A stretch of 64,000 nt of DNA from assembly GCA_000091205.1 (NCBI GenBank), contig AP006501.2; one strand, 5' to 3'. The stretch comes from Cyanidioschyzon merolae. Its lineage: Eukaryota. Of the stretch, positions 1-57,766 are shown one piece after another (the stretch's first letter is position 1; the number at the start of each line of letters is the position of its first letter). The notes beneath the pieces were generated by a model. The model did not search any database and was not told the DNA's origin. It was given only the letters and a program-made list of their open reading frames with translations. The position numbers and the translations under genes are program-made.

Positions 1-2980
1 AGGGAGCCCGCTGTATCCAGAATCGAACTCGAAGAGAACGAGGATATTACCGTCTGTTCTAGATGCAGAGGATTCCAGTCGCGGCCTCAGTTTCGCTCGT
101 GGAGGAGGCTCATAAGACAGCATCCACTTTGTCGAATCATCGAAGACTTTCACCCTGACTCCTGGCGACTTCCTTCTATTGGACAACGTGGCATTTGACT
201 ATTCGCTTTGCGTTCGGGCTCTTGCCTATTCTATCGGGTTTAGAGCTGCTTCTCATTCCTCGATACGCTCCGTGGCTGATTCAGATGAAAGTATCGTTTT
301 CTATTGTGAAACCTAATGAGCGCTGCACCAAGCGGATTCCCAAAGCGTTCCGCACCCGGCGACACAAAGGCGCGTGTAGTCTTTCTTCCGTCGGTCCGTC
401 TCCCGCCAGAAAGGTCCTGAAATAAGGGCATGAATAAGTGCGTCCATTTTCAAAAAAATCCAAGCGAAAGGCATGGACATGGAAGGCGAGGATCCTGGAG
501 GGCAGTCATTGGTGGATGCCGGAAAAGAACAAAAAGACTCATCAGCTCTCTGACCATCGAGCAGAGAAGAGCATATGACAACGACGACGAAGAAGAAGAG
601 GAGAGATGTGCAAGAAATGAGGTTTGCCCGTCGAGGCGACAATGAGACTGTAGTGACTCAGCGGGCATGAGTTCAAGGAATCCTCGCATTGATGAGTTCC
701 ACCTCCGGCAATACACGCATGCCGTTCAGGAACCGAAACTTCAACGCCGCCATCAATACCAGACGATTTGTCGTACAAAAGACGAGAACCGAGAAGCTGA
801 CACAAGCGAGCTTTTCGGGCAGCCTCTCAGGGTCGAGATGTACGGCGAGAAAGTGAAGTCGATAGCAGGCGGCCTTTCGCACAGGGCTGGGATGCCTTTG
901 TGAGTAGGTGTAAATATGTACGCTGTGGTGGTTGAGCATTTTTGTTTTCAACATCACGTGTAGAAGGCAGGCCTTGACAACGACTTCAAATTGATTTTTC
1001 CGATTTGAGAGTTTTGCTTTCCTGTCCTTCCTGGTCCTCTTCTCGGAGGAAGCTTTCTCTTCTCTGTCTGGTGGATTCGTTTTTTCTCCGTTACCTGGCA
1101 GGGTGGCATTGATGTGGTCGATAGTCAGTACGTCCATCGAACCGGGAAGAAGAGGCTTGCACGAACAGCCGGATCGGCACCATTCGCAGCTTTCTATACA
1201 TTGAACGTTCGTGATTGATGGAATGCGATGTTGCCCGACAACAGGACAGAAGAATTTGGGGGAGCGGAATCTTTGAAGAGTGCTTCAACCAACGATATAT
1301 TGATGTACGATCCCGTCCTTTGGGCGGTTTGTCAGCGACCACTCGATCGAATCACCACCAGGGCGAATGCTTACCTTATGCTCATTTCTTTTTTCTTTTC
1401 GAACACTGGTACATGGAGACTCCTCGAGCACCCATTTGCAGGAGTACCATTTCTCCCGAATCGGCTCTGATCGAGTGAGACAAACACATGCACTTTCTGT
1501 TGGCAGCGATCACGATTCAGGACAAAAACGACAGCAGGTGGTGTAGAATGTGCGACGATCACCCGCAGAAGCGTACTTGTACCTGTGTCCGCTCGTGTCT
1601 CTTCATAGCCAGTCGTTTGAGCGGTACAGAAACTTCACATACTGTGGCTACTTCCATAGTATTTCTCAAAAAACGGATGAAGTAGGAAGGGCTGATAAAG
1701 AGAGATTCATTGGGATGGAGTCTGGGAAGTGCTGCTATGGGTGCAGCACTTTCTGTATATGGGCGGGGTGAAGGGTGCCAGAGCCACTTGCTGAGCGTCG
1801 GATAACTGACTTGGACATGCAAGACCGTTTCACCGTATGCGACGAGCGACAGCGCCATGACATTCCTCGACTTTTAGCCAATCTGCAACATTCATTCGCT
1901 TTGCTCAATCTTCGCATGAAACACGGGCAAAACAGAAAAGGCTCGCTGGTGCAGGTATCCCAGAATTCACTGCTCTGAGTATAATGCCCTTTGACGGGTA
2001 GCAGAGCTTCTTTAGCACCGATCTTTCTGCCAGAATGAAGCGTGCAGTGAGAAAAAACTAGGGCCCACATCTCGTGCTCCTACCTGCGTATTTTTCACGC
2101 ACACAAGAACGAACAGCCTCTTAGCTCATTCTCAGTTTTCTATGCACCCAGCGCACGGACGCTTCTCGTTCTCGTATCTGAGAATGTTCGACGAATCATG
2201 ACGGGATGCGAAGTGTTTTACTAATTTATCAGTGTTTCGGCGACTCGGCTGCTGGCCAATAAGCTTCTGTCAACGTCCTAGATTGGTTGCTATTGAAGCC
2301 ATCCGAGGATAATTCCAAGCGGTGCAATGCAAGAGGGGGCACTCGAGCCGAATTCTCGCCTCAAAGAAAAAATTCTCGATTAGCTCGAATAGCCACGATT
2401 ATGCTTGAGTCTTGAGGCACGAGCTCTCATGCTGACCCATATCCTCCGTAAACTCAGGTGGAATGTATGCAGCGATTACACCAACCCACTCAAGAGCGAT
2501 CGGCAAGCTAGGGAATCGCCCCGAGTGCCGGGTGCACTCCTTTCGTGCGCTCAGCGACGCCGGATGACAAGCACTGCATAAGTCTTCCACGGAGCAAACG
2601 ATAAATAAAAGCTATCCACCGGATGTTCTCATCATCCTGTTGATTTTTGCGTGCGAACAGCAGCGTTCGACATGAGCCAGCACTCAACTGTCGAATACTG
2701 ATCCAGCACGACAGGTCAAGCATCGCGTCAAAACACCAGCCTACGAGAGCAAACGAGTTTTTCGCCACAGCGAACGGCATCCGTGGAGTCTTTGGCGTCT
2801 CATACCAGTGTCGACATCCTATCCACGTTTCCGATACGAATCATGGAAAGAGCACTCACCGGACTCGTGATGCATCGGCCGCGCGAATCGCTCCCCATGG
2901 AAAAATTGGTAATTGTTCCCGGGCTTGACGCTCCGCTGCTCTCCAATTGGAGCATTCTCCATAGCTAACGCATCGAACAC

Positions 2981-4075
2981 TTATGCTTCATCCTCATCTA
3001 CACCAGATTCGAGTTCCAGCTCCTCGTCTGCCAGAGACTGATGAACAGGTCTGGGGGCTTTGGCAGCGCTTCGTGCGCGCTGTTTTCGTCGCGTTCGCTT
3101 CCGCCCGCCGCGTCCACGTCGTTTTTCCCACGGGCGGGGAACCGCAACCGGCCGCAAGTAATCATACAACAGAGGTGTCGTGTTCGATGCCTCTGTTGTA
3201 TGCCACGCGGCGCAACGTGCTTCTTTGCGCCACAGGTCGAGGAGCTCCGCGTGTGCCCGAGCACCCATTTCACCCCTGCGATCCGTTGTTGTGCTCTCAA
3301 AAAGATCGACCCGAGCCATGAGTGCGATGCTGTTCGCTATTTTTCGGGCAATGCACCGAATGCGCCGTACGTTTGTTTCCGATCCGACCGCACCTGCGTT
3401 TTCTAAACCTGCAAGAATCTCACGGAGAAGGCTGCATTGAAAAATGGCCCCCCGTAGACACCGGGGGCCATAGAAAACGTACGTATCCCGCGCTCCGATG
3501 AGGCGCAACTGATCGGAAGGAAGTTTGGCCAAGGCCTCGAGGCCGCCGCACTCTGCGAGCACTCGCACCGCAAAGTTCTTCCCCGTCAGTGCGCACAAGT
3601 TGGGCGCCACAAACTCCACTTGGTCAAGTAATCGCATCATGAGCTCTTTCTCTTCCATCAAAAAACGCTTACTTCTCTGAATCAGTCTTGCAACTTGCTC
3701 CCAATCAGTCAGTGGCGGACCCAGTCTCCGGAGCAGCAGTGCAAGCCCCATGCTGACCTCTGGCGGCCACGAGCGCTCGCCAAGCACCGCTATGTCGATT
3801 GGTGGCGAACGGTTACCCAGAGCCTCAACGATTTCGAGTCCAAAAACTGGATCGCTCGTCAGTGTTCCCAAGCCCGGTAAGCGTTGTTCATAGGCGGCAA
3901 GCACTTGTCGACAGATCTCGCAAAGCCGGGAGTGCGTCTCCCGCACCGCTGCAGCGTTCCTCTCGAACGTTCTTTTCGTTTCCGAAAGCGTTTCCGCAGA
4001 AAACTTTACATCCTTAACAACTTTTTGGGAATCTTGGCTGGTTAAAAGCGTCCTGGCAGAAACGCCAGTGCTCAT
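2981..4075 (-). CDS. PRP31: U4/U6 snRNP protein PRP31 (Nop domain)
   Basis: The translation matches PRP31 in three blocks. '...EICRQVLAAYEQRLPGLGTLTSDPVFGLEIVEALGN' resembles the NOSIC block. 'FVAPNLCALTGKNFAVRVLAECGGLEALAKLPSDQLRLIGA' resembles the Nop-domain core (human '[41 protein letters not shown]'). 'ARVDLFES ... EKRRGRGGRKRTRRKQR' resembles human 'AARVDSFHES ... GQRKKRGGRRYRK'. The track ORF begins at a GTG, so I take the first in-frame ATG at 4073-4075. Confidence 0.75.
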   Translation of the reverse strand: MSTGVSARTLLTSQDSQKVVKDVKFSAETLSETKRTFERNAAAVRETHSRLCEICRQVLAAYEQRLPGLGTLTSDPVFGLEIVEALGNRSPPIDIAVLGERSWPPEVSMGLALLLRRLGPPLTDWEQVARLIQRSKRFLMEEKELMMRLLDQVEFVAPNLCALTGKNFAVRVLAECGGLEALAKLPSDQLRLIGARDTYVFYGPRCLRGAIFQCSLLREILAGLENAGAVGSETNVRRIRCIARKIANSIALMARVDLFESTTTDRRGEMGARAHAELLDLWRKEARCAAWHTTEASNTTPLLYDYLRPVAVPRPWEKRRGRGGRKRTRRKQRARSAAKAPRPVHQSLADEELELESGVDEDEA

Positions 4076-15363: not shown

Positions 15364-17195
15364 CCTACGAGCTCGGCGACCATACGCTCTGCAGCTTTCT
15401 TAGAGCCCTCCAAACTTCGGGGCTACACGTTTCGCACGCATGGCGCCGCACCGGACACGTGTCGCATTCTCATACGAATCGCCAGTGCTCGATGTCGAAT
15501 CGCCGACGGTGGCGTGTGCTGGGAAAGTGTCCATATGATACATGCTTGTTCTATCTTTGCCATTTATCTTCCTTGCGGGATGGATATTGATGTTCGGGCA
15601 TGCGTCCATCATGCTTCATGCTCCGTCCAAGTACCATAAACCAAACATTCTTTCGGATATACTGGTCATTCCGTATGTTCAATCGTGCACCAAGTGGCGG
15701 CCTTGCTGCGTCCCCAATAGCACCTGTACCGCTGGTACGGATCAAGTACGGAGACAGAACAGCTTTGCCACACCACTAAGAGCGTGGGCCCGAGGCCGAA
15801 TGTATTCGAAAACCGGGCCGGGATTCGTGATCATGCTGGGAGCCTGTAAGCTGCGCAGACAAAAACTACTGCCTGTGGCAGCGCGAAGCGATGTTGTACG
15901 GGTCCAATGCGACCTGGACGACGCCCAGACGCAGCCGATATGCTCCTAGTCCCAGACTAAACTGCGTTGCGGACGAGCTGCTCAGGTGTTACTCCAACGT
16001 CCGCCAATGGGGACGCACGAAGCGTTTGCCCAGCAGACTCGTCGAGCTCGCGGGACCTTCCGCCTACAAGGTAGACTTTAGAATTTACGGAAAACATTGC
16101 CCGCTTTCAACGCATACCGTTGAGGGGAAAGAAATCGTTATCTCATCGCTAGTTAGTGGTTCGTTTGTGTTCTTTACTATGAGGATCGTTCAACACCTCA
16201 TCCGTCGTCGATGCTTTCTTCGTGCCCTCTCCTTTGCACGAGAACAATGAATCTCCGAGCGGCATTCCAGATATCACTGCAGCGTGGCTGCTATCGCGAA
16301 GGTTCAGCACACTGTATCGGCCTTGTGTGACGTCTTGCGAACGTGCCCCTTGCGAAGGCGTGAGCAACGCAGGGTTGGGGCTCTAAATGCACTGAAAGAT
16401 GCAGCGATGGAAACTGGAGTGAGGGAGCTGAGCGACCGACCTCCCGTCGTACGTGGAACGTATTGAAACCCATCAAACAGAACGAAAGGGTAGCGTCGAA
16501 TGTGCGTGTGGTGGACATCGATGAATTGCGGACGTCGATCACGTGTTTTTGGTGCACAAGTTGCCTCCCGAAAATGACTGGGATGACGACGAGACTCATC
16601 ACCAACGACGCAACGAAAGAAAAAGATTGATGTCGTGTATTGCTCGGATCCCCAAAGTGCAGCTCCACTAGAGTGTCAGACGCCAGGGCAGAGGGTAATC
16701 TTCCAGCCGAGGCACCATATCAAACCGTGACAACAGTGGATGCTCCAGCACTTTGTAGCTGTTAAAGATCAGAATGAGAGGAGGTCAACAACCTGCATCG
16801 CTTCGTCGCACAAGAGAAATTAGAAATCCAAGCCCAGAGGGAAAAAGCTTATAATCCTCCCATACCAGAGTTCTTGATACGAGAGAATGGCTGTTGTGTC
16901 CTGGGTCTCGTACACAACGAGCATGATGTACTCTGATACAGCAATGAGACAGCATTGGTATCAGATCGTACGCAGAGCCTGGCGGAGGCACCCGCGAGCC
17001 GTCGCGAAGCGCAGCTCCTGATGCGCGCGTCGATGCTGCAATCTGAAAGCGGCGGCGGCATCGCGACGCTGCACCACAGAGACTGCTTCGAGACGTTCAT
17101 GCCTTACTGCTGTGATTCACGAGCGCTTCACCATAACCGTGCCTTACACTGCGGAAAACTTTTGGGACTCTTGTAAAGAGTGGTCTGGTTCCTAG

Positions 17196-18377: not shown

Positions 18378-19021
18378 GTGGGTCATCTATGAATAGTCAG
18401 CTGCAGTCGATAAAGTATCCACATTGTCGAAGTGAACTGGCAACACTTATGAATCTGCGGTTCAAGAAAATCAGTGCTGGATTTCAGGCCGCTCCAGCAG
18501 GTGCAAACCTTACCGTCCTTGACGCGGAAGCACGCGGCTGTCAGCGCTCCATATGCAGTCGTGCTCACAGAGTGCCGGATCAGGTAACTTGCGTAGTTAA
18601 ACAATTTAAATCAGTTCCGCATTCCAAGGTCCATGCAGAATGAACTAGAAGCATAAGGAATACACGCATACCCGAGCTCGCGAACTGGTGCGTGACTAGT
18701 TTGTTTACGACCAAGATGCATAACAAAACTACCATTAACTAGTTTTTTCCAGTGACAAACGTTTACTTAGGCCAGCGTTCTCCGAATATGCGCATTTTTT
18801 TCCATTGACAAAACTACCATTGACTAGTGGAATGCACGCCTCACTTGCCAACGCGCTGACCAGCGCTGATACCAGGACGCGCTGCTACGCAGCATCCGCT
18901 TCGGTGCTCCTAAACTTTAGGGCGATACTCCAGCGCTGTAGTGTTTGCTGGATCAGACCTGAATATGACTTAGTCAACTTTAAACGGTTCCTCTAGCGTC
19001 TTTCTCAATAGAGTTTTGAAG

Positions 19022-53206: not shown

Positions 53207-53719
53207 TCACGACTCTTCCAACGTCTGGCGAACAAGGCTTCGAACCCGCCGTCGGTACGCATCGGGTTGTTCGCGCCACTCCTTAGCAGCATCTATATTC
53301 GCGGGTGATTCGTCATTCGGGGACGCGAGCATGCTGATCACAGATAGTAGAATCGACTCAACAGTATGAACAGGTGACCAACGTTCGCCGGCCATTTCAT
53401 ACCCGTGTGGGTCGTCACCCGGAGGATGCAGAATGCTGATGCAAACTTCGCCGTTTCGGTAAACGTTCGGATGCCAGGGTATTGGCGGCAAAAACCTCAT
53501 TCTTGGCGGCAACATAGGGTACTCCGGTGGAAACGTAAGCTCCGCTCGAAACAGGCCCCCCTCGAAGGGCGTGTCTGGAGGGCCCAGCACCGTAACAGCC
53601 CAACGGAAGGGATCGTCCTCCGAAACGAGTCCCGCGCTGAAACCGTCCACGGAGCTCTTATTCAAGTCCCGAAGTTGACGGGTGAGAAGCAGCGCCGCAC
53701 GCGAAGAGTTCGCGCTCAT
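53207..53719 (-). CDS. UBC7: ubiquitin-conjugating enzyme E2, Ubc7/UBE2G-like (acidic-loop insertion)
   Basis: 'HPNVYRNGEVCISILHPPGDDPHGYEMAGERWSPVHTVESILLSVISMLASPNDESPAN' carries the HPN, the catalytic Cys and the UBE2G-type loop. The track ORF extends to 53854 through a dispersed repeat; the ATG 'MSANSS' is at 53717-53719. Confidence 0.85.
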   Translation of the reverse strand: MSANSSRAALLLTRQLRDLNKSSVDGFSAGLVSEDDPFRWAVTVLGPPDTPFEGGLFRAELTFPPEYPMLPPRMRFLPPIPWHPNVYRNGEVCISILHPPGDDPHGYEMAGERWSPVHTVESILLSVISMLASPNDESPANIDAAKEWREQPDAYRRRVRSLVRQTLEES

Positions 53720-53743
53720 TGTCTCCGCTGCTAGCGAACGCCT

Positions 53744-53832
53744 TTCAAAAAAAAGGTTGCTCCCGGCAGTGTACAGTAGCGGCGAGTGACCCGCCCTAGA
53801 CGAGACGTCTCCAACTGAGGTGCAGACGCCTG
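53744..53832. repeat. left copy of a ~90-bp direct repeat (partner at 57289-57381)
   Basis: The core 'gtRcaSgtagYggcgagtgacccgccctaRacRWgacgtctccaactgaSgtgcagacgcY' is shared with 57321-57381. Upstream there is additional similarity after an A-rich tract. Overall identity is about 85%. Confidence 0.7.
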
Positions 53833-53941
53833 TCGGGCTTTCTCGACCGGCCACTTACTACTCTTTTCCATTCTTGTCTCATATAATTCCACTTTGAGCG
53901 ATTGTCCAACGAAGTTCTCTCGTGTCTAAGCTGTAGGTCTA

Positions 53942-56290
53942 TTACCCGTCACCGCGCATTTTTCTCATATTGATTGCGGAGTTAAAGTCTCGGTTCACGA
54001 AATCCATTCGTTTCTTGCCATCACTGGATGTACTTACTACGGCAAGTTGTCCGAGAACTTTCGCCCTCCTTTCCATTTGCTCTTCTGTCAGCGCTCCGTA
54101 CTTTGCTATTTCCTCAGGGCTCCTCTGGCACTTTTCCATCTTCACTCTCTGAAGTGTACAACCCAGCTCATGGTGAGTATAGGACGTTCGAAACTCCTCT
54201 ACCCGTATCATAACGAAACGACGTGCGCACTCCTTGTACACCCTCGTCGTTGGAGCTAGCGTAGTTCCTTTTTGGGTCTTCCAGCGCCCTGCTCGATACG
54301 CTACTACGAGCCTCTGACTGTCATCCTCCATCAAGGCACTCAGCTGATTGAAAAAATTCGCGACCGCCCGCTGCTTCCCACAATACAAATTCATTCGCAA
54401 ACGAGCCCACCGGGGCTTGGTATACTCTTTCCACAGCGTATCCCAGTGCGCCATGCGAACTTCCATGACTTTCCGAAAAGCTTCAAAGTCCGCTCCTCGG
54501 CAAGTCACCTAGCTCCAAGCTTCCAGGTGATCTTTCATTCCTGAAATCCATGTCTCGATTTTCTTCCTCGCATTCATGATTCCCGAGTCTTGATAGTATC
54601 TCCCTCTCGAGAACCTCAAAAGACGCATGTCTTTCTGACGTAAGTTACCATCAGTACCATCTTCCGCACGCTTCAATGCTGCGATGGTAATGATATTCGT
54701 ATTCCCAGGGTCCGCGCCAACGACAAAGTCGTTATCTAGCACTCTCTGGGTCGCAGGGCCCACCTTCTTGTCTTCTTCATGCTTCACCGCGTCAACGACA
54801 AGGTCTTTATCCTGCATTTCCTGCGTCGTAGAATCCGCCTTCTTCGCATCTTCATCCTTCGCCGCGTCAACGATAAAGTCGTTATCCTCCACCGCCTGCG
54901 TCGCAGGACCCGCCTCTTGGTTTTCTTCATGCTCCTCTGCGTCAACGGCAAGCTCGTTATCCTCCACCTCCTGCGTCGCAGGACCAGCCTCCAGCTCATC
55001 TTCATCGTTCGTCACGCCAACGACAAGGTCGTTATAATGCACCTCATGCATCGCAGGATCCGCCTCCTACTTTTCTTCAGCCCTCGTTCCGGGCGCAGCC
55101 GATGGAGGGACTGGACGATCTTTCTTCAACCGTCGATAGTGTACGCACACGGTTACTCCATCGGTTTCGATCATCCCAGTGAGCTACTTTTGCTTGCTCG
55201 TTTTGAGACGTTTGAAACCGAAGATATTCTTCCAGTACGTCTCCCGGTTTTCGCCGGTGAAGTGCTCCCTACTAATATTGAACTCCGCACTGATCTCCTT
55301 TATGATGCCGTAAAGGACCGCGGAGTCGATCGTCATAAAATGAGCCTTGATGTTGCACAACGGAACGACATTGAAGCACTCACCCAATAGGAAAGCCTTC
55401 CGTCTCTCCCATTCTTCATTTTTCCTCACTCAGCTTCATCTCCGCTTTGCGTTCGAGCTCTCGGCCCAGAAACACAAAATACCGCCGGAAGATGCGATAG
55501 TATCTTTCCTTATCTTTTTTCAACTCTGATATCTTGTCTGTTGGATTCACCAGCCCCAAGACTGCACGATGCTCTTGTATAGCCGCACGGGTTACAGATA
55601 CTTCATTCGTGCTCCTTTTTTGACGTCTTCTTGTCGACGAATTCGACGTAATCTTCATGCTGGCGATCTTTCGTGATGCCACTGATGATCGACCATATCC
55701 CCTTGCGAGAGATGCCCGGGTTGAGTGCAAACGCGGTGCGTATCATGAAACATGCGAGGTTCTCTGTCAAATGGTTCTTCAGGTTCGTGATGTACTTCAT
55801 TGCCCCATATGTGTAAATATGCGAGTCACCCCTGCGCCGAGCACCCTCGAAGCGGAATACCGCGAAGTTTTCGTGGAGAGTATGCATTAGCACATTTTCC
55901 CTCCACGTTCCCGCTGTACCATGCATCAGGTATCGAAAAGACGTCTTGTCGAAGAACTCGCCCGGAATCTCGACCGTTTCCATCTGCGTCATTTGTTCGT
56001 ACATCTCCCTCGCCAAATGCATCAGTCCGGAAGACGCCTTGGCAATACTCTTGGAGTACGAGTCGACATGCTTTCTGATAGCGTCTCGCAACTTTTCCGT
56101 ATAGGGATGCTTGATATGTCCAAGAAGAGAGGTTTTCACCACTATCTCGTGGTACAGTTGTCGTTCTTGCAGCCTTCGACGTAGGGCCTCCCATTTTGCT
56201 TCTTTTTCTTTTGCTCTTCGTCGGGACTCGGCACTGTATTTGTTTTTCTGGCAGCCGGCGACAATGGCGCTTCAGGATCGTGGACTTGCT
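53942..56290 (-). pseudogene. decayed TnpB/Fanzor-like RuvC nuclease gene (transposon-associated), interrupted by frameshifts and in-frame stops
   Basis: The remnants lie in order on the minus strand. RuvC-I is 'VVGADPGNTNIITIAA' (54509..55051). RuvC-II is 'FVMIRVEEFRTSYT' and RuvC-III is 'DFVNRDFNSAINMRKM' (53942..54508), with a degenerate H/C cluster between them. An in-frame TAG at 54509-54511 separates the two ORFs. Further TAGs at 55067-55069 and 55184-55186 fall in the same frame. Upstream pieces sit in two other frames (55603..56142, and a short ATG ORF starting ~56290). Whether the N-terminal region is also TnpB-like is not established. Confidence 0.4.
54716..55090. repeat. 75-bp tandem repeat x5 encoding acidic 25-aa repeats inside the TnpB-like pseudogene
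   Basis: Units start at 54716, 54791, 54866, 54941 and 55016, an exact 75-bp period. They encode '...GPATQ.VEDN.F.VDA..DED.KK...' on the minus strand. Confidence 0.75.
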
Positions 56291-57288
56291 TTTTCATAGC
56301 TCTCCTTTTTTAGGTATTTTCGAAAAAGAACGCTCTTTGAACCCTTCTGTTATATACTGCGAAAAAGTACTTGACTAGACTTGTTTGAGGGCTGAAACAA
56401 AAATGAACTGAAAGACTTTACTTGGCTAAGAGCTCAACGGAAATCCAACTTTTTCTGGCAGAACAACACGCTCGTTACTAGGATCGCGTTTCCCTTCAAC
56501 GGCGGCATGCGCGTCGTGTCAGTTCACTGCCTGATCTCCGAGGCGTGCTCCCTGAGCGCGATGCGTGCACCGCGCGAGACGCTGCACCGATCCATGAAGG
56601 ACACGTGTCCGACACCGCCTTGGCATATGCGTATTCGCACCGCACTGCAGCTGGAATAAAGTATCGTAGATTGGAAACTCACGTAGAATGATCTCTTGCC
56701 ATAGGCTCTGGCGGCGGTGCCAACGCTACTGCCCATCGCAGTACCGACCTGACGTACAAGGGGATTTTGGGGCCTGGCGAGATACCCCTCGACGCTTCTA
56801 TAAAAAGCGTTGCGTTCTCTGCGGCTTACGCTTGTGTGGATAAGGAAAACATTATTCTACTCAATGGGATTTTCGTTAGTTTTATTGATCGTAAACAAAC
56901 AAGGCACGATAGGATTCCTGAACACGGATACACGTTTAATCCCGGTGCTTGTTATGCATGCGGCACGGACGCTGGAATAACGAACTGACCTGAGTTGTGC
57001 TTCTATCCTGCGTCACGTTCTGGAACTGATGGCAGATCAAGTCATTTCCATGCTATCGTCGTTGTCCAAGTTATGGCGCCCGCTACTCTCCCGGATCCTG
57101 TGATCTTGGGAGAGGCATAGCATACATAGAGCGTTCATACGTGGCACAGCACTTGACCAACGCATCTCACCTGGAACGATCGAGGAACCCGCCAAAAAAA
57201 GCATACTGAATTCTGATCTACTCTTTAAGATTAGTTTCAGGAGACTAACCCATACATCGAGCCCGGAAGAGACACAGCCGACAAAAAA

Positions 57289-57381
57289 TGCTTTTGAAAA
57301 GAAAAACGCTGCTGCCCGCGGTGCACGGTAGTGGCGAGTGACCCGCCCTAAACATGACGTCTCCAACTGACGTGCAGACGC
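57289..57381. repeat. right copy of the ~90-bp direct repeat (partner at 53744-53832)
   Basis: See the left copy. It has the same orientation, and the two copies are 3.55 kb apart. Confidence 0.7.
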
Positions 57382-57766
57382 TTCCAAAATAACATACCAC
57401 CGGAGGAAATTCCCTTATACCTCCTCTACGGTATTCGTCGGAGAGCCACGTCGACGTTCGTGAACGGTCGTTTAGATATCTGAGCGCAGCACTGCGGAAC
57501 CCTTGGCACTAACTGCTGATGAGGTTGTTGATGGGAAGCATAGGAGTTTTGCCTAGTTTCTCAGAAAGACATTGAGCACTTGTGCTAGATGTGCTCAACG
57601 CTATGCAGTGTACGGGAGATATAGGTCAGACTCTGGACAATTGACGGGCGATCACTCTTGCAGCTACGCAAAAGAGGTTTTTGACTGGATACGCATGGTT
57701 GAGCGAACGTCTCTAGTTGGTGGCGCGTTCAGCAGCTTTGCACCAGAGGAAATCTAATGCAAGAAA

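Follow-up and report, generated by a model that had tools for sequence, protein, structure and literature searches.

What kind of element left its remains on the minus strand between a protochlorophyllide-reductase-like (POR) open reading frame (ORF) and the Ubc7 gene of Cyanidioschyzon merolae 10D? The segment in question occupies positions 53739–57385 of a stretch of 64,000 nucleotides (nt) from contig AP006501.2 (assembly GCA_000091205.1), referred to here as the window, and all positions are given in the numbering of this stretch. An initial annotation, made from the letters of the DNA, had described the segment as an old and degenerated insertion of a mobile element bearing a TnpB/Fanzor-like nuclease gene. 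Our analysis bears this out by alignment to a published transposon consensus, by the profile of the protein family and by a predicted fold: the segment holds a broken Fanzor1 gene and is, with a probability of roughly 0.93, one ancient, inactivated copy of CMe-1A, a known Fanzor1-bearing transposable element of C. merolae.

Relationship of the segment to CMe-1A

CMe-1A was described in C. merolae as a family of ~150 copies, each ~80% identical to a consensus of ~3 kb (a Repbase-type sequence of 3169 bp in the supplementary table), which has no terminal inverted repeats and no determined target-site duplications and was left unclassified by its describers (Bao and Jurka, 2013, Mob DNA 4:12, PMC3627910). 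It carries CMe-1, a Fanzor1 protein of 734 amino acids (aa) encoded in a single exon, and the 5′ 635-bp part of its consensus is identical to a separate element, TE-N2_CMe (PMC3627910). We took the consensus sequence from the supplement of that publication and aligned it to the window using blastn. Consensus positions 671–3169 match window positions 56536–53739, with 83.6% identity over consensus 671–2193 and 85.1% over 2117–3169, so that at least about 80% identity extends over most of the length of the CMe-1A consensus. This part, the 2.8-kb core of the element, thus lies on the minus strand at 53739–56536. Since the whole of it aligns to a published transposon consensus at 84–85% identity, a chance origin of the features seen in the segment is excluded.

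The likeness to CMe-1A extends to the genome, the family, the 734-aa single-exon Fanzor1 ORF, the 3′ terminus and the lack of terminal inverted repeats, and the 84–85% identity of the window copy accords with the ~80% reported between copies and consensus. The window copy differs from the consensus in being a pseudogene, in having five units of an acidic repeat where the consensus has one, and in its 5′ part, in which the 635-bp TE-N2_CMe portion is lacking while a 753-bp module and a duplicated 96-nt 3′ terminus are present. The first 670 bp of the consensus, the TE-N2 part, are missing from most metagenome copies as well, and most of these start at consensus 648–690. In hot-spring metagenomes we found 71 related loci with ~42 distinct 3′ flanks, as for a multi-copy mobile element; the element encodes no transposase.

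Other traces of these sequences occur in the window and in the metagenomes. A separate TE-N2_CMe copy lies at 15573–16175 on the plus strand (79% identical to CMe-1A consensus 38–636), and two short element-related fragments are found at 436–535 (plus strand, 75% identical to consensus 869–968) and at 18611–18742 (minus strand, 67% identical to 56857–56988, a part of the 5′ module). In the metagenome loci L016, L017, L020, L023 and L031, TE-N2 fragments are located, inverted, immediately upstream of the core.

The family, with its copy number and Fanzor1 gene, has thus been known since 2013, and the segment, being one of its pseudogene copies in the very organism for which it was published, is not new. 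The initial annotation had held that even a relic would be noteworthy in a genome of this type; with ~150 copies of exactly this element reported in C. merolae (PMC3627910), that assessment does not stand. The discovery value of the segment itself is small, although the interval should be annotated in C. merolae 10D as a CMe-1A (Fanzor1) pseudogene copy and not left as empty intergenic DNA.

The broken gene and its Fanzor1 family

The Fanzor1 (CMe-1) pseudogene spans 53796–56297 on the minus strand, with its ATG at 56295–56297. Residues 1–734 of the CMe-1 protein are covered in the window by five pieces in different reading frames (tblastn). Relative to the family consensus, the frame is shifted by five indels, namely the loss of one nt near 56192, the gain of one at 55621, the loss of two near 55423 and the gain of one each at 53963 and 53876, and it is interrupted by four in-frame TAG codons at 55184–55186, 55067–55069, 54509–54511 and 53926–53928, the last of them in the C-terminal tail. 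The RuvC triad Asp…Glu…Asp is still encoded in order on the minus strand. RuvC-I is found as GADPG at 54704–54718, providing the catalytic Asp (D484, P485 and G486 are nearly invariant in an alignment of 45 family sequences); RuvC-II as VEEFRTS, with the catalytic Glu, at 54182–54202 (consensus VDEFRTS; E656 and R658 nearly invariant), aligning with DEFRTS/DEYKTS of PpFz and SpuFz; and RuvC-III as RDFNSAINM, with the second catalytic Asp, at 53966–53992 (consensus RDFNAAINI; R724, D725, N727, A729 and N731 nearly invariant), aligning with NRD of the same two proteins. The reading frame that would join the three motifs is broken, however, and because of the five frameshifts and four stops the gene is dead and no nuclease can be made from this copy.

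Could the pieces instead be exons of an intact, spliced Fanzor gene, or could the TAG codons be read through? All catalytic residues (D, E, D) are still encoded and every premature stop is a TAG, both of which speak for such a reading. Yet each change of frame coincides with an indel of 1–2 nt relative to the consensus, across which the homologous coding sequence continues, and the frame changes are for this reason not introns. The TAG codons stand in the place of ordinary sense codons of intact relatives (V, K/E, E and L), and the genes nearby follow the standard code: mitochondrial EF-Tu and Ubc7 (exact matches to BAM83042 and BAM83043 of C. merolae 10D, respectively) are each encoded in the window by one unbroken ORF. 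We therefore rejected a recoding of TAG and give a functional gene in pieces practically no chance. The simplest explanation for the uniform TAG in the four premature stops is that many codons ending in G lie one step away from it.

Two further features of the coding region turned out to belong to the family. Between RuvC-II and RuvC-III, the window copy reads THHELGC…(9)…C, as do its close relatives, and a second CxxC is lacking in all of them; the wider family retains one Cys (GLLWC) in this zinc-finger region. As judged from these sequences, the degeneracy of the zinc finger characterises the CMe-1 clade as a whole and not the window copy in particular. An array of five tandem 75-bp repeats encoding acidic 25-aa units lies at 54712–55086 on the minus strand (Tandem Repeats Finder: period 75, 5.0 copies, 74% matches), just N-terminal of the RuvC-I strand, and the unit includes the strand motif '..NDFVV..'. 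The number of units is one in the consensus, five in the window and from 1 to 5 or more in relatives. Because it varies amongst uninterrupted ORFs too, the array is not a sign of decay but a variable minisatellite in a disordered linker in front of RuvC-I, and as such a trait of the family. In five metagenome loci (L044, L045, L057, L059 and L061), two partial copies stand head-to-head near consensus 2093–2140, at the acidic array (in L044, for example, 13–563 on the minus strand adjoins 560–1708 on the plus strand), so that an inverted duplication of large size results, as though the minisatellite had served as a breakpoint.

Most of what had been noticed in the coding region at the outset has therefore held: the three RuvC motifs are in place and in order, and the two or more frameshifts and three TAG codons counted then have grown to five and four, the added TAG being the one in the C-terminal tail. 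The degenerate zinc finger and the fivefold acidic expansion are likewise present, but the former is clade-wide rather than particular to this copy and the latter cannot be counted as decay.

How firmly can the gene be assigned to Fanzor1? Neither the single ORF pieces nor a conceptually repaired protein of 676 aa matched any TnpB/Fanzor family in Pfam or NCBIfam, and no PDB sequence was matched by a phmmer search with the repaired protein or by a profile of 20 close relatives. In a large protein collection, the repaired protein has 51 close relatives, all from metagenomes of the Joint Genome Institute or the European Nucleotide Archive, which share GADPGNTN, VDEFRTS and RDFNAAIN as well as the acidic 25-aa repeats. 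The best of them, P0001, is an uninterrupted protein of 752 aa with 61% identity over 92% of the repaired translation; it stayed short of the curated threshold of the Pfam models for prokaryotic TnpB (OrfB_IS605 / Cas12f1-like_TNB; E = 0.23). In two distant relatives the Cas12f1-like_TNB family appeared below threshold (E ~2e-3, 18.5–18.9 bits versus a cutoff of 26.3).

An exhaustive profile search yielded 2126 relatives at E ≤ 1e-3, and a broad profile was made from a 45-sequence alignment that includes distant relatives from this search. Compared with the PDB, it matched PpFz (9CF0, E = 1.7e-18), SpuFz (8GKH, E = 7.7e-13) and GtFz (9CER, E = 4.8e-9) with RuvC-I, -II and -III aligned; only the profile widened in this way reached the Fanzor1 structures. 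The fold was predicted for the intact relative P0001, which is 61% identical, and not for the broken window copy. The AlphaFold2 model built on the 45-sequence alignment has a mean predicted local distance difference test score (pLDDT) of 82.5 and a predicted template modelling score (pTM) of 0.79, and only the acidic repeat region (residues 384–469, pLDDT below 50) is disordered. A Foldseek search of the PDB with this model returned Fanzor1 entries in all of the top seven places (E from 5.5e-17 to 5.4e-14, TM-score up to 0.72 normalised to the target; best match E = 5.5e-17 with a TM-score of 0.71), followed by Cas12b, Cas12i, Cas12f and related proteins, in agreement with a Fanzor/TnpB/Cas12 fold of REC and WED domains and a split RuvC. 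Given that single sequences find no match, it is the broad profile, the fold and the 2013 publication that carry the family link, and together these support the assignment of the window gene's family to Fanzor1. The profile searches suggested in the initial annotation thus came out empty in Pfam and with single sequences and positive with the broad profile and the fold comparison.

The close relatives P0001–P0051 carry a precomputed Pfam label, PF26935 (DUF8286), a domain of unknown function, which our own Pfam scan did not return and which is not mentioned in the literature we found. It appears that Pfam holds no link between the PF26935 clade and the TnpB/Fanzor families.

The solved Fanzor1 proteins (SpuFz1, 8GKH/9CEU; PpFz, 9CF0; GtFz, 9CER) share with the CMe-1 clade the overall fold (Foldseek E from 5e-17 to 5e-14), homology at the level of profiles, the order of the RuvC D-E-D triad and the residence in a eukaryotic transposon. 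They differ from it in sequence (only 12–15% identity), whereas the CMe-1 clade is set apart by its degenerate Cys zinc finger and by the disordered acidic insert before RuvC-I. With the prokaryotic TnpB proteins of IS200/IS605 and IS607 elements, the nucleases of the obligate mobile element-guided activity (OMEGA) systems, CMe-1 has in common the superfamily, the order of the RuvC motifs and a conserved, structured element end beside the 3′ end of the nuclease gene, the site at which TnpB systems produce their omega-RNA. In contrast to these, CMe-1A has no TnpA partner and no above-threshold Pfam OrfB/TnpB match, it resides in a eukaryotic nuclear genome, and the N-terminal half of its protein is much longer.

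RNA-guided nuclease activity of Fanzor1 proteins was shown in 2023. By homology to SpuFz1, GtFz1 and PpFz, intact CMe-1A members would encode an RNA-guided DNA endonuclease with a RuvC domain, within the TnpB/Cas12 superfamily. The RNA loaded into this protein would derive from transcription of the element's 3′ end, and its guide part would extend into the flank. The window copy would represent the DNA that is left of such a system after loss of the protein.

The duplicated terminus and the age of the insertion

The segment had initially been delimited by direct repeats of ~90 bp, taken to flank it. Such repeats are present: 53747–53829 and 57299–57381 are 83 nt long and 84% identical, and blastn extends them to 53737–53829 and 57287–57381 (E = 2e-20 within the segment). 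They are, however, neither flanks nor target-site duplications. The downstream one corresponds to consensus 3073–3169, the 3′ terminus of the element itself, and contains the stop of the consensus Fanzor ORF at 3107, and the upstream repeat is a second copy of this terminus, located directly before the 5′ module on the minus strand (96 nt at 57290–57385, 84% identical to consensus 3073–3168 by blastn).

The 753 bp between this second copy and the core (56537–57289, minus strand) are non-coding and do not occur in the published consensus, where the 635-bp TE-N2 part takes their place. In several further loci the same stretch directly adjoins the core on its 5′ side, with identities of 95% in L005, 86% in L073, 84% in L036, 80% in L070/L058, 77% in L006/L063 and 74.5% in L027/L028, and its last 70–170 nt occur in many more copies. 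This recurrence identifies 56537–57289, by sequence, as an alternative 5′ module of the element, in keeping with the variable 5′ ends of CMe-1A copies. We had also considered that the stretch might be spacer DNA unrelated to the element, with the upstream repeat as a lone relic, a view rejected on the same grounds.

The order of terminal segment, 5′ module and core recurs in L036 and L005, which go back to the same ancestral insertion as the window copy, and in one independent locus, L070/L058, where the upstream 3′ part is longer (consensus 2737–3169) and more diverged than the downstream copy. We read the upstream repeat as a head-to-tail remnant, in which the 3′ end of a preceding unit abuts the 5′ module of the present one, but hold this reading loosely because there are only two instances: amongst the ~42 independent loci, 3′-end sequence precedes the 5′ module in the window lineage and in L070/L058. 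Alternatively, the ~90-nt repeats could be genuine terminal direct repeats, either LTR-like (LTR, long terminal repeat) or split direct repeats as in elements with a circular intermediate, which would make 57385–53739 a single complete unit of 3.65 kb, as the initial annotation had implied. It speaks for this that the segment from repeat to repeat corresponds exactly to 5′ module plus core and that the junction of terminal segment and 5′ module recurs in the independent L070/L058. Against it stand the restriction of the arrangement to two lineages, the copies with a module start at position 40 or 98, which have no 3′-end segment upstream, and the published consensus, which is free of terminal repeats; moreover, the upstream piece of L070/L058 has a length of at least 430 nt, extends into the coding region and is the more diverged one, which fits a neighbouring copy that has been truncated. 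Most full-length copies of an LTR-like element would carry the repeat at either end, a pattern that was not found. Terminal direct repeats are in our estimation improbable, if less so than an intact gene, and we continue with the head-to-tail remnant.

Head-to-tail arrangements occasionally occur also in the Helitron and Helitron2 elements of Chlamydomonas that carry Fanzor1 genes (CRe-1 to CRe-3; Bao and Jurka, 2013), which CMe-1A further resembles in being non-autonomous, in its 3′ hairpin and in the lack of terminal inverted repeats. It differs from them at both ends, since its 3′ end reads …GAAAGGCGT and not CTRR after the hairpin, and its 5′ ends are variable instead of fixed. The Helitron signature of 5′ TC, 3′ hairpin plus CTRR and insertion between A and T was not found in CMe-1A, which ends in …GGCGT, usually followed by T, and a search confined to the loci in hand identified no Rep/helicase partner.

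As to the age of the insertion, the same decayed copy is found upstream of Ubc7 in environmental strains that are 98–99% identical to the window. Locus L036, which has the POR orthologue upstream and a flank 84% identical to that of the window, is orthologous and shares the architecture, which makes the arrangement an old one. In Cyanidiococcus yangmingshanensis, of the sister genus, neither the element nor its terminal motif is present upstream of Ubc7, but the upstream neighbour of the gene differs there as well. A comparison of orthologous regions, proposed at the outset in order to contrast presence with absence, thus gave filled sites in all close environmental strains and absence in the sister genus alone, and with upstream synteny differing in the latter it provided no clean empty site by which target-site duplications could be defined. 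In contig L005, identity to the window is 100% beyond the upstream repeat on the POR side but only 95% in the 5′ module (comparisons with 57386–57600 and 53739–57289), and TE-N2 fragments take the place of Ubc7 on its 3′ side. The contig either comes from a recombinant strain or is a metagenome assembly made chimeric by repeats.

The 3′ terminus and co-oriented host genes

While the 5′ ends vary, the 3′ end of CMe-1A is formed by a hairpin, and the 3′ arm of this hairpin runs up to the final base (…GGCGT), as seen in most of 50 copies (alignment A4, columns 256–300). Its two main variants, GCGTCGTTCGA-CTT-TCGAACGGCGT and ACGTTTTTC-TTTT-GAAAGGCGT, differ in their stems. In the window copy, a weak 6-bp version at 53741–53756 closes the conserved 3′-terminal region (53739–53872, minus strand), which also holds the downstream repeat. 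When folded, the consensus sequence of the final ~128 nt forms a long closing stem (CAGTAGTGG / CCACTACTG) that encloses internal hairpins, and the terminal hairpin comes after it; folds of the last ~130 nt of individual copies have z-scores from -1.0 to -4.2. Beyond …GGCGT the bases are semi-conserved, with T in 40 of 47 copies, then N-G-K-K-G, and poor in A; they may constitute a target motif, or else the element may extend a few bases further. The RNA of Fanzor systems originates in the end region of the transposon and can overlap the end of the gene (PMC10432273). By this analogy it is plausible that 53739–53872 contains a candidate omega-RNA scaffold, and this structured part overlaps the low end of the interval in which such an RNA had been predicted (53830–53945).

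Several results weigh against the account given so far. Searches with single sequences and with the close-family profile found no TnpB/Fanzor match in Pfam, NCBIfam or the PDB, and the CMe-1 clade lacks the CCCC zinc finger that TnpB and Fanzor proteins typically have. With just two independent loci having a 3′-end segment before the 5′ module, true terminal direct repeats keep a small share of the probability. On the RNA side, statistical support for a fold is weak: RNAalifold gave no consensus structure for the last ~290 nt of 50 copies (-3.4 kcal/mol), covariation in the fold of the consensus, assessed by pair counting, was no higher than in shuffles, and Rfam at permissive thresholds had no match over 53600–57500. 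The covariation test is a weak one, because most copies are neutrally decaying pseudogenes.

The last base of the window copy lies 18 nt upstream of the Ubc7 start codon (53718–53720, minus strand), which is outside the element. To see this position in context, we analyzed the metagenome loci (L001–L073) after clustering their 3′ flanks into 42 independent loci. In 24 of these (57%), the 3′ end of CMe-1A is followed within 300 nt by the ATG of a co-oriented ORF with a length of 200 aa or more, and 11 of the 24 ORFs start within ~50 nt of it. Intergenic positions in these loci set a baseline of 9%, over which the enrichment is roughly six-fold (binomial p ~6e-15), in a count that takes raw ORFs as gene calls and draws on metagenomes of related strains. 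Convergent gene ends were found within 300 nt in 6 of 47 flanks before clustering; the corresponding comparison on the 5′ side is unreliable, the 5′ ends being variable. The downstream ORFs are unrelated to each other and are therefore host genes; a second gene encoded by the element was rejected as an explanation. The enrichment of CMe-1A 3′ ends at gene starts may be new.

Such a distribution could also arise if the 90-nt repeat were a dispersed promoter or 5′ untranslated region (UTR) motif of the host that has nothing to do with the nuclease segment, as the initial annotation had allowed. One copy indeed lies 18 nt before the Ubc7 ATG, and more than half of the independent loci have it in front of a co-oriented ORF. 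In those loci, however, it is always the continuous 3′ end of a Fanzor element and overlaps the end of the ORF (consensus 3107), isolated copies are lacking in the 71 loci apart from the two head-to-tail cases, and the Ubc7 orthologue of Cyanidiococcus does not have it. We consider an independent host motif very improbable: the repeat is part of the element, and may have been co-opted as a promoter.

The enrichment suggests either a directed insertion at the 5′ ends of genes or the survival of those insertions whose 3′ end is usable as a promoter or 5′ UTR. By the first route, the element would insert into gene 5′ ends in a directed way; by the second, its terminus would act as a portable promoter or 5′ UTR and, in a very compact genome, only such insertions would survive. 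The 3′ end of the window copy probably now supplies the 5′ UTR or the promoter of Ubc7. As a tentative proposal, to which we give appreciably less than even odds, the hairpin-ended terminus of CMe-1A would be both the likely omega-RNA region and the part that places or keeps elements upstream of co-oriented host start codons. An activity reading outward from the terminus, if it exists, would also explain why a copy of the terminus stands before the Fanzor unit in head-to-tail arrangements.

It is this genomic context of the family, a fixed, hairpin-ended 3′ terminus combined with variable 5′ ends, occasional head-to-tail junctions and enrichment upstream of genes, that is possibly worth pursuing. 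If the second route applies, Ubc7 and perhaps dozens more C. merolae genes would be transcribed from the end of a Fanzor transposon. Should the pattern hold in the finished genome, it would bear on how Fanzor1 elements without a transposase move and persist, and on a possible rewiring of promoters by them in one of the most compact eukaryotic genomes.

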